Virus record (IMG/VR): IMGVR_UViG_3300039037_000048
Span: 1-60,069 of that record
Source of the DNA: a virus
Lineage: Duplodnaviria > Caudoviricetes
Strand: one strand, 5' to 3'
DNA length: 60,069 nt
Part shown: piece by piece, positions 23,388-34,690 of the stretch
Layout of the letters: each line of letters begins with the position of its first letter
How positions within the stretch are numbered: position 1 is the stretch's first letter
Notes under the pieces: model-generated
Database searches by the model: none
Seen by the model: only the letters and a program-made list of their open reading frames with translations
Told to the model about the DNA's origin: nothing
Program-made: the position numbers and the translations under genes

Positions 23388-23414
23388 TAAAAAAAGGGGG
23401 TTTGCAACCCCCCC
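23388..23414 (-). terminator. Rho-independent terminator
   Basis: GGGGG-TTGCAAA-CCCCC followed by a T run. Confidence 0.7.
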
Positions 23415-23698: not shown

Positions 23699-23766
23699 TA
23701 TAATCGATGTGTTAGCACAAAAAAAGAGAGGTAACTTGACCTCCCTTCACACAAACGTATTGAGTT

Positions 23767-24034: not shown

Positions 24035-24202
24035 TCACTTAACGTAGGTGCGACCACGATAGCAGAATGTACCATGAGCTTCTTTGCTTTCTACGCAACG
24101 CTGATCATACTCGACACCACGATATGCGGTAGCGGTGATCTGTGCATCGTGCAGTGCAGCTGCCTTCTGGATCTGCTTCTTGATGAGAGTGAGGGTGTTC
24201 AT
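24035..24202 (-). CDS. DUF4278-like protein (candidate glutamine synthetase inactivating-factor homolog)
   Basis: Two YRG motifs (AYRGVEY, CYRGRTY); SD AGGAG; directly downstream of glnA-type aptamer. Confidence 0.75.
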   Translation of the reverse strand: MNTLTLIKKQIQKAAALHDAQITATAYRGVEYDQRCVESKEAHGTFCYRGRTYVK

Positions 24203-24242
24203 TGTAGGTCTCCTAAAAGAATGGGATTGTCGCCCCGTTCCT

Positions 24243-24410
24243 TCAGTCGTTTGCGCCCCAAACATCGAAACACTCTGGTACATAGTCCTTAACGGTATCT
24301 ACCAGTTCTATTCTAACCTCTGACTCCAGGTGCTTTTGCTTTTGGATCCGAAGGATTAAAGCATCGGCATCTGGACATGCCATCGATGAATACAAAAGTA
24401 ATTCAAACAT
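24243..24410 (-). CDS. 55-aa protein with two Cys, embedded in the inner aptamer
   Basis: Hand-translated MFELLLYSSMACPDADALILRIQ...VPECFDVWGAND. Confidence 0.65.
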   Translation of the reverse strand: MFELLLYSSMACPDADALILRIQKQKHLESEVRIELVDTVKDYVPECFDVWGAND

Positions 24411-24445
24411 GGGGTGAACGCTCCGTTCCGCGACTTACTTGCGTC

Positions 24446-24646
24446 CTATGTATACAACCCGTCGCATTGACCTTCCACCTTTGTCTTGAGATATCCAATA
24501 ATATTCATCTTCGATCGAAGATCAAGATGAGGATCTAATTGAATCTCCACTCGACGTTGGAGGAACCTTTCACACGACATGTGCCACCCGTAGGGGTTGC
24601 CGTCATCATGATGGGCAAGGGTCAATGCCAGCAGGATGCTGAACAT
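24446..24646 (-). CDS. 66-aa protein with hydrophobic N-terminus and two Cys, embedded in the outer aptamer
   Basis: ORF track; resembles 24243-24410. Confidence 0.65.
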   Translation of the reverse strand: MFSILLALTLAHHDDGNPYGWHMSCERFLQRRVEIQLDPHLDLRSKMNIIGYLKTKVEGQCDGLYT

Positions 24647-24664
24647 AAGATGAACGATTGCTAT

Positions 24665-24711
24665 AGTATAGCATTACTATATATCTTATGTCAACTGTAA
24701 CATCCGCTACA
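24665..24711 (-). promoter_or_regulatory. sigma70 promoter with adjacent NtcA box
   Basis: TGTA-N8-TACA (24696-24711) next to TTGACA-N18-TATACT. Confidence 0.65.
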
Positions 24712-24715
24712 TTTA

Positions 24716-24979
24716 TTATTTCTTCTCTTTTGGTGCGTTAGGATCCACCCACAGCTTGGGATTTGCTCTGCCTTCAGTCTGTACCATTGTAACAAAGTCT
24801 TTACGATACATGTCCCAGTAGTGATCGAAGATGTCTACTCTCTTACTGGCAGTCACGATATCAAACTTGGTCATACCATCTTGCAAATACTCTACCATGT
24901 ATGCAGTGTATGGTAGAGAACGATCTTGACAAAGTGTGGGGTCACAATCTTTGTGGATGTATTTAATTCCTTTCCCCAT
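24716..24979 (-). CDS. Conserved cyanophage hypothetical protein
   Basis: MGKGIKYIHKDCDP...VDIFDHYWD.Y...QTEGRANPKLW. Confidence 0.7.
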   Translation of the reverse strand: MGKGIKYIHKDCDPTLCQDRSLPYTAYMVEYLQDGMTKFDIVTASKRVDIFDHYWDMYRKDFVTMVQTEGRANPKLWVDPNAPKEKK

Positions 24980-32035: not shown

Positions 32036-32107
32036 AGCGGATGATCGGAATCGAACCGACGACATCTAACTTGGAAGGATAGCGTTCTACCGCTGAACTA
32101 CATCCGC
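32036..32107 (-). tRNA. tRNA-Gly (TCC)
   Basis: GCGGATGTAG start; anticodon loop CTTCCAA. Confidence 0.95.
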
Positions 32108-32127
32108 AGGGTGGGAGAGCGTTACTT

Positions 32128-32305
32128 CTCCCTAGGCTCGCCACTTGTTCTTTCACTGGAAACAAGAAACCAGGCGGCAACAATCACCCGCACCACTTGC
32201 TTTTGAGGAGAAGCAAGAAACCCGAGGGGTCTGGGACCCATCCCGACCAGGGCGCTTTTAGCGTCGTCCCGAGACGTGGGTCATAATGACTCCACCAGGG
32301 TAGGT
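32128..32305 (-). ncRNA. manA/wcaG-like structured cyanophage RNA upstream of tRNA-Gly
   Basis: Two internal repeats GGTTTCTTG(C/T)TTC...AA(G)..CAAGTGG(T/C)G; GC-rich stems; no ORF; family name recalled, not verified. Confidence 0.6.
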
Positions 32306-32312
32306 TTAGAGT

Positions 32313-32729
32313 CTATCCAAGACTAATGGTGTCGTTACCATCTTCATCATCCTTGACTTGATAAGGATCATTGAAGGTGATGGTATCCGTACCTTCTGCA
32401 CCAGAGATGACGGTATCACCACCAAAGTCTAGCACATCCTCACCGATACCACCGAAGGGAATGTTAACAGGACCAGCAGCTGCTGCACCAAAGGTTTCTA
32501 CATTAGTAGCATTCAGATAGTCAGACTGCAACTGGAAGTTGTAACTAGACTCATCGTAGGATGGGTACTCACTGGGAAAGTTAATAACCATACCAGTTTC
32601 CATAGGTGCCATGGAGCGCAGTTTATCATAGATCTCAAAGAGATCACGAACAGAGTCACCACTCTTGTTCTGCAGTGCTTCCAGCAGTTCCTGGCGCACT
32701 AGTTCTTTTGCTTCAGCGAGACGAGACAT
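32313..32729 (-). CDS. Acidic hypothetical protein
   Basis: Start MSRLAEAK; repeated DTI(S/T) motifs. Confidence 0.6.
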   Translation of the reverse strand: MSRLAEAKELVRQELLEALQNKSGDSVRDLFEIYDKLRSMAPMETGMVINFPSEYPSYDESSYNFQLQSDYLNATNVETFGAAAAGPVNIPFGGIGEDVLDFGGDTVISGAEGTDTITFNDPYQVKDDEDGNDTISLG

Positions 32730-32952
32730 TATCTTTGATGTAACAAGGGACAGTTTCGGGATCCAACCACTTCGTATACTCGAAGTCCTCCATGGCAATA
32801 GTCATTTGCATGGCATTGTCACAGAGGTACATGTCAGAGTACCGCTTGGTGTACTCGTGTGCTTTTTGAATACGAAAGTCGGGCATCCCGTTGGTTTCCA
32901 GTGTACCACACTCGACGTAGCGGTAGGGGAAACGCTCAAGAAGGATTTTCAT
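32713..32952 (-). CDS. Conserved cyanophage hypothetical protein
   Basis: LLERFPYRYVE.G.LE.NG.PD.RIQK...WLDP. Confidence 0.75.
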   Translation of the reverse strand: MKILLERFPYRYVECGTLETNGMPDFRIQKAHEYTKRYSDMYLCDNAMQMTIAMEDFEYTKWLDPETVPCYIKDNVSSR

Positions 32953-33176
32953 TAGTAGGAGGGATCTCCAGGAACGTCATCATCATAGGGCAAGTCAGGC
33001 ATAATGTCAAGCAGTGGTTCGATCTCTTCTGTGATCGGTGCTGCGATGACTGCACTGCCATCAGGGCGACGTACTAGGAAGTGCTCGCCCTGATTCTCAA
33101 TCAGATCCATGTAGTTATCGAAGTTAGCTTGGAACTCTTCTTCGGTAACCTCACGCATTTCTTCTACTTGTTTCAT
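32952..33176 (-). CDS. Phd/YefM antitoxin-fold-like protein
   Basis: VTEEEFQANFD.YMDLIE..GEHFLV...G.AVI pattern. Confidence 0.5.
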   Translation of the reverse strand: MKQVEEMREVTEEEFQANFDNYMDLIENQGEHFLVRRPDGSAVIAAPITEEIEPLLDIMPDLPYDDDVPGDPSY

Positions 33177-33418
33177 ACGTTGCAACAAATATTTTGTTCT
33201 TGAAGATACTTGATAGTATCTGTACATCCACCTAGGTGCTTCTTGTCCATAAGAACTTGTGGGAAAGTTGTTCCCTCCCCAAACAAACTATAGAAATCAG
33301 CACCAGTGAAGTCTCTACCTAAACGATACTCTACAAACTTGAACTCATTCAATTCAAAAAGCAATCTGATCTGCTCACAATAGCGGCAACCGTGCTTTGA
33401 ATAGATGGTGAATGTCAT
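33173..33418 (-). CDS. Glutaredoxin
   Basis: CRYC; TFPQV...LGGCTDT. Confidence 0.88.
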   Translation of the reverse strand: MTFTIYSKHGCRYCEQIRLLFELNEFKFVEYRLGRDFTGADFYSLFGEGTTFPQVLMDKKHLGGCTDTIKYLQEQNICCNV

Positions 33419-34065
33419 TTAGAAAGTTGGGCGAAATCCTGTTCAAAAATATTTAGACCAGCGTCGGTCAGAACGTGGTTGTACATTTTATCAAACACTG
33501 ACACAGGTAGAGTGACTACGTGAGCACCGTACAAGAGACAGCGAGCAACGTGATGAACATCACGAAGAGAAGCAGCGAGAATCTGGGTCTTCTGTGCCTG
33601 TGTGCAGTAAAGACCAGAGATAGCACGAACCAGTTCGACGCCACTGCAACTATTATCGTTCATCCGACCCACAAATGGGGAGATGTATGTGGCACCTGAC
33701 AAAGCGGTCACCGCTGCTTGAGCAGCAGAGAAGCACAGGGTCACATTAGTCTTGACGCCACGACCAGAGAGTTCCTTGCAGGCAATCAGACCCTCTTTGT
33801 GAAGGGGAAGTTTGATAGTCACTGCTTCACCCAGACCGATGTAGTTCTCGGCATCCTCTAGGAGTTCTTCTGCTGTATGTCCATTGACTTCTGCTGATAC
33901 AGATTCAAACCCAAAGGACTCATCACACAACTGTGCAATAAGATCTCGGTAGGGCACACCTTGCTTACGAACAAGTGTAGGATTAGTTGTTACGCCTGCG
34001 ATGATACCAGTACGAGATCTCTCAAGAATGGCACCGAAGTCTGCTGTGTCTAGAAAAATTTTCAT
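33415..34065 (-). CDS. talC: Transaldolase (TalC/Fsa family)
   Basis: MKIFLDTAD, GVTTNPTL, TIKLP, NVTLCFS, YISPFVGR. Confidence 0.95.
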   Translation of the reverse strand: MKIFLDTADFGAILERSRTGIIAGVTTNPTLVRKQGVPYRDLIAQLCDESFGFESVSAEVNGHTAEELLEDAENYIGLGEAVTIKLPLHKEGLIACKELSGRGVKTNVTLCFSAAQAAVTALSGATYISPFVGRMNDNSCSGVELVRAISGLYCTQAQKTQILAASLRDVHHVARCLLYGAHVVTLPVSVFDKMYNHVLTDAGLNIFEQDFAQLSK

Positions 34066-34093
34066 TGTAATATTGTTGGTATAGATGTACCAA

Positions 34094-34167
34094 TCGGGGT
34101 GATAGGATTTGAACCTACGACCTCCCGCTCCCAAAGCGGGCGCTCTACCAAGCTAAGCTACACCCCG
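34094..34167 (-). tRNA. tRNA-Pro (TGG)
   Basis: CGGGGTGTAG start; anticodon loop TTTGGGA. Confidence 0.95.
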
Positions 34168-34176
34168 TTAGAGGAG

Positions 34177-34428
34177 TCAACGCTCCTCAAAGTCAATTCG
34201 TCGGACCTTGCGTTGTCGCCTCTCCTCCTGAAAAACCAAGTCTTGTGGTGATAGATTCGGAGTAGACTTGTGCTTCTGGGGACTCGTTAGAATCTCTACC
34301 AGAGACAGATCCTTCCCTGATATGTTGGTCCCACGGATGCTCGTAAGGTTCGGGCACCCGCAGCACCTGGTCTTGGAGGGATGACTCTCTAATACTTTCC
34401 CGCAATTCTTGCATCTGATACTTAACAT
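34177..34428 (-). CDS. Zinc-ribbon hypothetical protein
   Basis: CKNC...CCGCPN; C-terminal RRQRKVRRIDFEER. Confidence 0.7.
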   Translation of the reverse strand: MLSIRCKNCGKVLESHPSKTRCCGCPNLTSIRGTNISGKDLSLVEILTSPQKHKSTPNLSPQDLVFQEERRQRKVRRIDFEER

Positions 34429-34525
34429 TGTCTAGCGCCACTCTAATTAGTGCTAACTCTTCGTGTATATCCTGATGGTGAAAGCGCAATGGTTTCTGCA
34501 AAAGTCTTTTAAGTTTCTTTTTCAT
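34193..34525 (-). CDS. Hypothetical protein; long overlap with the next gene
   Basis: ATG right after tRNA-Val; KPLRFHHQDIHEEL. Confidence 0.45.
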   Translation of the reverse strand: MKKKLKRLLQKPLRFHHQDIHEELALIRVALDNVKYQMQELRESIRESSLQDQVLRVPEPYEHPWDQHIREGSVSGRDSNESPEAQVYSESITTRLGFSGGEATTQGPTN

Positions 34526-34538
34526 GAGGATTTAACAC

Positions 34539-34612
<74 letters not shown>

Positions 34613-34616
34613 GAGG

Positions 34617-34690
34617 CGTCTTGGGCAGGACTCGAACCTGCGACCGACTGTTTAGAAGACAGTTGCTCTATCCAGCTGAGCTACCAAGAC
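34617..34690 (-). tRNA. tRNA-Arg (TCT)
   Basis: Anticodon loop CTTCTAA. Confidence 0.95.

Follow-up and report, generated by a model that had tools for sequence, protein, structure and literature searches.

Glutamine riboswitches and related systems

According to the available text of Klahn 2018, both glutamine riboswitch classes mainly precede genes of the DUF4278/IF17 type and act as ON switches, DUF4278 being the domain of the glutamine-synthetase inactivating factor IF17 (Klahn 2018, PMC6212724). Glutamine riboswitches are already known in cyanophages, as the accessible parts of two reports state (PMC9964418, PMC9004378). Side-by-side tandem glutamine riboswitches are known as well (PMC2864571, PMC9481103), with 157 doublets and 4 triplets given in the accessible portion of the most recent survey (Sherlock et al. 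2022, PMC9481103). The element considered here lies at positions 24658-24233, minus strand, of IMG/VR record IMGVR_UViG_3300039037_000048, a virus fragment of 60,069 nucleotides (nt) that was analyzed over its full length (hereafter the window) and that bears the cyanomyovirus hallmarks of a wcaG RNA and many tRNA genes. The element is probably a cyanomyovirus operon leader in which a type-1 (glnA-type) glutamine riboswitch has taken a nested form, its loops replaced by genes.

The type-1 glutamine riboswitch (glnA RNA, RF01739) resembles the element in helix P1, junction A, helix P2, the loop-E strands, the position of helix P3 and the long-range pair. Like its type-1 counterparts, the element sits upstream of a DUF4278/IF17-like gene, and its 3' tail is predicted to compete with the ribosome-binding site. 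Unlike in RF01739, the P2 loop here is a gene of 66 amino acids (aa), P3 encloses a second core together with a 55-aa gene, and the aptamer spans about 425 nt rather than about 55-65 nt. The type-2 riboswitch (Downstream-peptide motif, RF01704) shares the strings CGUUCA, hairpin, CGCA...CGA and GGAACGG and the same pocket nucleotides, and it too precedes short DUF4278 genes, in marine picocyanobacteria. However, the glutamine-II hallmark, a hairpin with a GGAACGG loop that forms a pseudoknot with CGUUC, is absent here: the inner CGUUC finds its partner in an adjacent GAACG across a 3-nt loop, and scores on RF01704 and RF01739 reach 21-28 bits, under the RF01704 gathering score of 33.

Side-by-side tandems also place two glutamine-type cores before one gene. 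In the accessible part of the 2022 review they are complete units in series, pseudo-cooperative and with multiple expression platforms (PMC9481103), whereas in the present element one core appears to lie inside the other's P3, circularly permuted, with one shared platform. Ordinary compact type-1 doublets, 6-10 nt apart, occur in four IMG/VR viruses (L108, L113, L135, L161) and contrast with this nested form. Group I introns of T4-like phages carry homing-endonuclease open reading frames (ORFs) in peripheral loops. They share with the element a structured RNA with ORFs in terminal loops, long-range helices over coding sequence and a clash between translation and folding. Those introns are self-splicing ribozymes, whereas the RNA here belongs to a ligand-sensing aptamer class in an mRNA leader, and the genes embedded in it, unlike the intron ORFs, are small conserved phage genes whose start codons (and the first stop) fall within helices.

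In the main texts of the papers searched, neither a glutamine double aptamer of nested or permuted form nor a riboswitch with genes in its loops was found to be described; a sequence-only reading of this DNA had likewise known of no description of a riboswitch with genes inside it. The word 'nested' is absent from the accessible text of the 2022 tandem-riboswitch review, and a nested double core is not among the tandem architectures presented there (PMC9481103). Riboswitch aptamers are usually treated as compact contiguous leaders; here the helices would span whole genes, with one aptamer inside another.

Recurrence and distribution

The 164 sources comprise the window, three phage isolates and 160 IMG/VR loci. 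Relatives were gathered through the embedded 55-aa ORF (80 loci), through the DUF4278 gene (80 loci) and through the motif pattern (80 listed of 120 stretches). Counts for ORF-bearing elements refer to 115 unique elements overall, to 60 for the outer P2 helix (P2a) and to 113 for the inner one (P2b).

Of the 164 sources, 151 carry the motif strings with hardly any variation, and many of the remaining 13 are truncated at locus ends; the region is matched by blastn in 413 phage records. The RNA used for folding, 465 nt long, has a minimum free energy (MFE) of -157.2 kcal/mol (z = -4.33), a value equaled by none of 100 shuffles. Recurrence on this scale, together with the fold, argues that the motif is more than chance. 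Both long-range helices, P2a and P2b, are already present in the MFE structure of this RNA, as is the inner hairpin; when single compact aptamers were folded with RNAfold, the outer P1 and P2a were recovered and the inner junction was not clean. Such single-sequence folds were given little weight. Invariance is itself an ambiguous signal here and weighs less for the nested riboswitch than it seems to, since the patterns used for collecting and parsing fix P1, the inner hairpin P1' and part of the 3' strand, making their constancy partly a matter of construction. The informative evidence therefore lies in P2a, P2b, the long-range pair and a compensatory flip of the inner hairpin.

The element is widespread, being common in cyanomyoviruses and not peculiar to this window, and all four combinations of ORF-bearing and compact P2a and P2b loops occur among the relatives. 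Related sequences are also present in contigs from metatranscriptomic libraries, which are uninformative on transcript ends, strand and level; parts of the window that lack cover by RNA-library contigs carry no meaning. A search of 185,579 species genomes with the nested-junction pattern returned six stretches, all in metagenome-assembled genomes (MAGs) or atypical contigs, so the nested form looks phage-borne. The six contigs (L293-L298) are filed under Synechococcus, Verrucomicrobiales, Nonlabens and Euryarchaeota MAGs or assemblies, two of them are about 190 kb long, and they are probably phage DNA binned with cells.

The outer aptamer

The segments that the sequence-only reading had named were all found at their positions when the window sequence was read directly, on the minus strand, to which the coordinates of the element and its operon refer throughout. 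The outer aptamer opens with AU and the P1 5' strand CGUUC (24658-24652; CGUUC 24656-24652), which correspond to RF01739 consensus positions 1-7 and pair with GAACG at 24240-24236. Together with the junction A, these form AUCGUUCA (24658-24651). This P1, including the preceding AU, is as in RF01739 and is invariant among relatives, offering no covariation either way. Directly after the junction A (24651), as in RF01739, comes P2a, with its 5' arm UCUUAUGU at 24650-24643, containing the AUG (24646-24644) of the 66-aa ORF, and its 3' arm ACAUAGGA at 24451-24444, containing the UAG stop (24448-24446). In the window the helix has 8 pairs, one of them G-U; it is present in the 465-nt MFE structure and its arms covary. 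The loop between these arms is the 66-aa ORF in the window and a short hairpin of one of many sequences in compact relatives.

The 3' half of the aptamer follows the same model. The outer J2/3, CGCAAGUA (24443-24436), supplies the loop-E 5' strand and the C of the long-range pair, and it leads into the P3 5' strand AGUCG (24435-24431), which pairs with CGACU at 24249-24245. The closing stretch at 24249-24235 joins the P3 3' strand CGACU, the loop-E strand GAAG, the P1 3' strand GAACG and the long-range G, as in the RF01739 consensus; its portion GAAGGAACG (24244-24236), that is, GAAG plus GAACG, equals that consensus. The consensus order is AUCGUUCA, P2, CGGAAGUA, P3 and GAAGGAACG. All of these segments are held by the window with a single change, G to C in CGCAAGUA (CGC for CGG), and the proposal that the joining sequences match the glnA-type riboswitch thus holds apart from one base, which is compensated.

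The compensation concerns the long-range pair, formed in the window by C24441 and G24235. The changed C pairs with the G that follows GAACG. Among canonical viral type-1 aptamers (129 matches in 120 IMG/VR stretches), the pair is CGG..C in 111, CGC..G in 16 and CGG..U in 2, with no mismatch; among nested compact members it is CGC..G in 54 of 56 and CGG..C in the other 2. This pair, equivalent to C19:G41 in glutamine-II, is the last pair of the ligand-binding helix in the accessible account of the structure (Huang 2019, PMC6698751).

Loop E is likewise placed as in RF01739. Its strands, AAGUA and GAAG, are contained in CG(G/C)AAGUA (24443-24436) and GAAG (24244-24241), which flank P3; GAAG becomes AAAG in 14 of the 115 unique relatives. 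The P3 strands AGUCG and CGACU are complementary and correctly placed, and both Infernal and RNAalifold put P3 at this site in compact forms. Their four variants (106, 3, 3 and 3 of 115) differ only through G-U pairs, with no double change.

Membership of the family is carried by the relatives rather than by the window, a circumstance that counts against the assignment: the window falls below the RF01739 gathering score without any match at all. Rfam gives no match at the site at gathering scores, nor at E<=10 on 24150-24750, and searches of the window with RF01739 and RF01704 return only a 4.7-bit fragment at 24235-24243. Such silence is expected from loops of 186 and about 230 nt. An element this common with no Rfam match in the window even at E<=10 implies that model-based scans miss elements of this kind, and riboswitch use by phages is likely undercounted.

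Compact relatives

Each P2 position in the relatives holds either an ORF or a short hairpin, so that loop collapse can be seen in nature. Among the 70 classifiable loci gathered through the DUF4278 gene, P2a is short and P2b holds an ORF in 38, each position holds an ORF in 28, and each is a short hairpin in 4. The 80 listed loci from the pattern scan include 56 fully compact nested doubles and 8 with the 66-aa ORF and a compact P2b; contig ends truncate 2 more, and the other 14 are unrelated sequences matched by chance. Two loci with short hairpins at both positions (L238 and L241), whose P2b reads UCCC-UUCG-GGGA or UCCC-UACG-GGGA, reach 39.6 bits on RF01739 (E 2.3e-6; gathering score 35), the match covering the whole model (positions 1-53). 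The prediction that the glnA model would recognize the element once its loops were collapsed was thereby borne out, through natural compact relatives in place of in silico edits.

Infernal aligns L238 and L241 in nested fashion, treating the inner unit as a 38-nt insertion in P3, and metatranscriptome contigs aligned to the window add three further compact P2b hairpins with UUCG loops and different stems. Across 42 compact sequences placed on the nested fold, 99.9% of cells are paired; shuffling lowers this to 95.6% and sliding to 30-54%. Double changes occur in six pairs, and none of 500 shuffles produced as many. The RNAalifold consensus of the same 42 sequences is the nested fold.

The inner core

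Inside P3, the linker bases C and G and the inner hairpin GAACG-GAG-CGUUC (P1') occupy 24430-24416 (hairpin 24428-24416). The hairpin is part of the MFE structure and undergoes the compensatory flip described below. It is followed by the inner junction A (24415) and the P2b 5' arm CCCCA (24414-24410), whose last A is the A of an AUG; the P2b 3' arm UGGGG (24260-24256) leads into the inner joiner CGCAAA (24255-24250), which carries the inner CGC. The order of these strands indicates that a second core is housed inside P3 of the outer aptamer as a circular permutation, in which P1 is closed by a short loop and P3 forms the open end: P1' has a 3-nt loop and is followed by A, P2b and CGCA. A permuted second unit at this place had been proposed from the window, and its hairpin, junction A, P2b and CGCAAA were all confirmed, the topology being backed by the flips and by RNAalifold.

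No unique element, whether among the 115 with an ORF or the 43 compact ones, departs from CGUU(C/G)A, CGCA, G(G/C)AACG or the G that opens the inner loop; the loop otherwise varies (GAG, GAGC, GAA, GAU, GGUA, GAUU and others), as do both P2 stems. In the accessible structural account, glutamine riboswitches have a ligand pocket of C1:G40 and of G18 with G2:C39, and a closing long-range pair (PMC6698751). Every nucleotide that this account reports as contacting the ligand in the solved glutamine-II and glutamine-I structures is retained by the inner core (PMC6698751).

The inner loop also appears to serve translation. Loop bases G-GAG form a GGAG 10 nt before the AUG of the embedded 55-aa ORF, and the loop begins with GAG in 108 of 113 ORF-bearing elements versus 1 of 45 compact ones, a comparison uncorrected for relatedness. 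Since GAG accompanies the ORF, the inner hairpin appears to incorporate the Shine-Dalgarno of the 55-aa gene.

This distribution, which points to a translation role, bears on a rival explanation in which only the outer aptamer senses glutamine and the inner module, which would bind no ligand, either prolongs P3 structurally or acts as an operator on translation of the 55-aa gene. The inner core has no loop E and its joiners, C and CGCAAA, are unlike the type-1 consensus, features that tell against a second binding site and mean that the inner core may not bind ligand. Read with the 3' strand, the inner unit scores 25-26 bits on RF01704, under the gathering score of 33. On the other side, the nucleotides of the inner pocket and long-range pair, as named in the accessible part of PMC6698751, stay invariant in the 115 plus 43 unique elements while loop and P2 stems vary, and the sole inner pair that flips, C5:G36, is one that the same source names as less conserved. 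On balance, a ligand-free inner module seems rather unlikely.

The inner hairpin is a site of insertion in at least one relative. In Synechococcus phage Sf-CH5 (L419, 486-1080), an annotated homing endonuclease gene of 573 nt lies in the 3' strand and loop of the inner hairpin, flanked on both sides by repeated CGUU. A third loop of the element is thus also able to carry an ORF, and the invariant core may be a homing target.

Nested or side-by-side arrangement

In most members the strands are also complementary if the element is read as two ordinary side-by-side units without P3, one joining the 5' CGUUC to the central GAACG and the other joining the 3' GAACG to the central CGUUC. When P2a is short, Infernal does align the first unit in this tandem fashion, at 21-28 bits on RF01739 and RF01704; these scores, however, fall under the gathering scores, and for the compact forms Infernal and RNAalifold pick the nested fold. 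A side-by-side reading also splits the loop-E strands AAGUA and GAAG and the P3 strands between two units, where they make sense only together.

Two natural changes separate the arrangements. The inner hairpin is GGAACG/CGUUCA in 111 of 115 unique elements and GCAACG/CGUUGA in 4, with no half-changed forms and with the outer strands unchanged. The flip therefore keeps the hairpin and leaves both tandem P1 helices mismatched (C-C and G-G). The flipping pair, C5:G36, is one of two less conserved pairs of the ligand-binding helix in the accessible text of the structural study (PMC6698751). The second change is in 2 of the 56 compact loci, where an outer J2/3 with CGG (CGGAAGUA) accompanies a 3'-terminal GAACG-C while the inner loop still starts with G; the outer pair thus tracks the 3'-terminal strand and not the inner loop.

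Nesting rather than a tandem is supported by the flip of the inner hairpin, the flip of the outer pair and the RNAalifold consensus. The events behind it are few, at most two for the hairpin flip and two loci for the outer pair, and P1, P1' and P3 hardly vary, P3 through G-U changes only, which tempers the case. The side-by-side reading was nonetheless rejected as highly improbable, for the loop-E and P3 strands are shared between its halves and the flips fit nesting only.

Embedded genes and the helices that close over them

The ORF that fills the P2a loop (66 aa, 24646-24446) belongs to the syn9 gp196 family (phrog_6471, E 1.4e-36) and the ORF that fills the P2b loop (55 aa, 24410-24243) to the syn9 gp197 family (phrog_504, E 5.2e-22); with the downstream gene they make three consecutive small genes equal to syn9 gp196, gp197 and gp198. 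Both start codons lie in 5' arms. The stop of the 66-aa ORF is in the P2a 3' arm, and the 55-aa ORF continues across the inner joiner and the 3' strand of P3 before ending at the UGA of CGAC-UGA-AGG (24245-24243), its stop thus lying downstream, across the P3 3' strand and loop E. The claim that the P2 arms hold the AUG and UAG of the 66-aa ORF and that the second ORF starts at CCCCA(UG) is accurate to the coordinate.

Both embedded ORFs look coding. Besides the PHROG matches and the GGAG of ORF-bearing elements, variable columns fall mostly at third codon positions (38/27/58 by codon position in the 66-aa ORF and 40/30/47 in the 55-aa ORF), and the common loop lengths of 153, 156, 159 and 162 nt differ by multiples of three. 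Pfam gives no match for either ORF, an Atlas search with the embedded proteins returns only unnamed viral clusters, and a profile search of the PDB yields one weak, unconvincing match. The two proteins share a Cys...Cys spacing and align weakly with one another (BLASTP E 0.036; hhalign probability 53%, E 1.4e-4). An ancient paralogy of the two is possible and would agree with duplication of a module made of core plus gene.

The arms that close over these genes covary at several positions. Among the 60 unique elements with an ORF in P2a, positions 1-3 are always paired. Position 3, where the -2 base of the AUG meets the third base of the stop, is C-G in 36, U-A in 23 and U-G in 1, with no mismatch. 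Position 4 is paired in 33 of 60, and where it has a C, a G accompanies it in 9 of 10 cases. Opposite the AUG itself lies the codon that precedes the stop; across 30 unique arm pairs, the three AUG bases are paired with it in 27, 20 and 27 cases. P2b is a YCCCA/UGGGR helix in the 113 unique ORF-bearing elements; its position 1 is U-A in 86, C-G in 26 and U-G in 1, again with no mismatch, and the G/A change in the arm turns a Gly of the protein into Asp. Covariation had been proposed as a check for P2, P2' and P3: compensatory changes of the start/stop pairing were found at P2a position 3 (0 mismatches in 60) and P2b position 1 (0 in 113), so P2a and P2b covary, while P3 offers only G-U changes.

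A promoter-like site and the putative expression platform

A sigma-70-type promoter-like site, TTGACA-18-TATACT with TG before the -10 (24694-24665), has 11 of 12 consensus matches, and 110 of 148 unique relatives have a site of this kind whose -10 hexamer ends 7-9 nt upstream of CGUUCA. The RNA is predicted to start at about the A of AUCGUUCA, at P1 itself, which would leave the 66-aa gene a leader of about 12 nt wholly within P1 and P2a.

Downstream, the Shine-Dalgarno AGGAG (24214-24210) and a 55-aa DUF4278-like (IF17-like) gene of the syn9 gp198 family (phrog_545; AUG at 24202) together span 24214-24035. The protein scores 21.4 bits on PF14105 (DUF4278; E 3.3e-4), short of the 25.3 cut-off; all 26 of its scanned homologues match DUF4278 at E<=0.01. 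The element thus precedes a DUF4278/IF17-like gene, as glutamine riboswitches do. Because the gene that it would control resembles IF17, the element may tie the phage program to the nitrogen state of the host.

An alternative, OFF-state hairpin is predicted at 24246-24213, where CUGAAGGAA-C-GGGG (24246-24233) would pair with CCC-A-UUCUUUUAG (24226-24213), with an energy of -15.7 kcal/mol (z -3.14). The first two bases of AGGAG would be caught up in it, together with the 3' strands of P3, loop E and P1. All six bases of CU(G/A)AAG are paired with a segment extending to the Shine-Dalgarno in the MFE structures of 131 of 145 unique relatives; another 10 leave at least one of the six unpaired, and 4 lack a script-recognised start codon. 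The variable position of the hairpin is G-C in 67, G-U in 34 and A-U in 30. By analogy, the OFF hairpin would be the competition expected of a glutamine ON switch such as gifB.

Two further features of the tail were noted. The P1 5' strand GUUCAU (24655-24650) is complementary to AUGAAC at the start of the DUF4278 gene (24202-24197) and is paired with it in the 465-nt MFE structure; such pairing might lock the start codon a second time, or it may be fortuitous. Another class of 3' tail, present in syn9 (L005, about 820-870) and in many IMG/VR loci (including L018, L028, L048 and L073), has a conserved insert between GGAACGGG and UUUUCC that consists of ACGGAUCC, a covarying GNRA-type hairpin and GAGAAGGUUAA. 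The insert has no Rfam match at E<=1, and the window has the short form.

Proposed mechanism

Without glutamine, the OFF hairpin would keep the downstream IF17-like gene off; nested aptamers stabilized by glutamine would release its Shine-Dalgarno, as in the ON switch described for gifB. Two stacked cores could accommodate two ligands, making the response sharper. The start regions of the embedded genes would be buried in P1/P2a and P1'/P2b, with the GGAG of the second gene in the inner hairpin loop, and translation of the embedded genes and folding of the aptamer would exclude each other, giving control reciprocal to that of the downstream gene. We infer glutamine binding, two-site cooperativity and the competition between translation and folding from sequence alone.

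Taken to its full extent, this scheme would make the element a cooperative sensor with two glutamine sites, and the passage of ribosomes would itself belong to the switching. When glutamine is low, the cores would stay open, the embedded genes would be translated and ribosomes would hold P2a and P2b apart; at high glutamine the cores would lock, bury the embedded starts and free the Shine-Dalgarno of the IF17-like gene. This fuller version is tentative and should be held with less than even confidence. If it is true, a single RNA sets three phage genes reciprocally according to host nitrogen status. With its one platform, a nested and permuted double core would be a way to build a cooperative sensor, and start codons and one embedded Shine-Dalgarno inside aptamer helices make the interplay of translation and ligand sensing directly testable.

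The gene-bearing loops themselves raise a different possibility, that ORF-bearing copies are relics of an aptamer broken by gene insertion, with the strings kept as start regions, as homing targets or by recent descent and the downstream gene translationally coupled. Several of its supports weigh equally against the nested riboswitch. P2b has 5 bp only and P2a is unpaired at position 4 in 27 of 60 elements, making both weak closers of the 150-200-nt loops they would need to close. Changes of arm bases on quick trees of ORF interiors number 12-13 for P2a and 5-6 for P2b, and tree-aware sign tests are underpowered and not significant, with 4 independent pairs on supported branches for P2a (p 0.125) and 1 for P2b (p 1); linkage within a 200-nt block could inflate the association of the arms. 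The embedded 55-aa ORF stops inside the OFF hairpin, where a terminating ribosome could open the downstream Shine-Dalgarno regardless of glutamine, making translational coupling plausible, and the homing endonuclease gene in the Sf-CH5 inner hairpin implies a site that tolerates insertions. A broken aptamer is nevertheless hard to square with covarying arm positions that show 0 mismatches in 60 and 113 unique ORF-bearing elements, one of the changes at the cost of an amino acid, with core strings equally invariant in ORF-bearing and compact forms, with an OFF hairpin kept and covarying in both alike, or with a full-RNA MFE structure that forms both long-range P2 helices. The relic explanation is accordingly considered improbable, and a nested glutamine riboswitch with genes in its loops better accommodates these patterns.

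Other features of the window

Terminator-like hairpins occur at 23723-23748 and 23394-23414 (minus strand), after two more small ORFs downstream of the DUF4278 gene, and the transcription unit may therefore hold five small genes. Elsewhere, the wcaG RNA lies at 32130-32225 (minus strand; 80.9 bits), and nine tRNA genes at Rfam gathering scores lie within 151-2130 and 32036-34690. Both the wcaG RNA and the tRNA genes are ordinary features of cyanomyoviruses.

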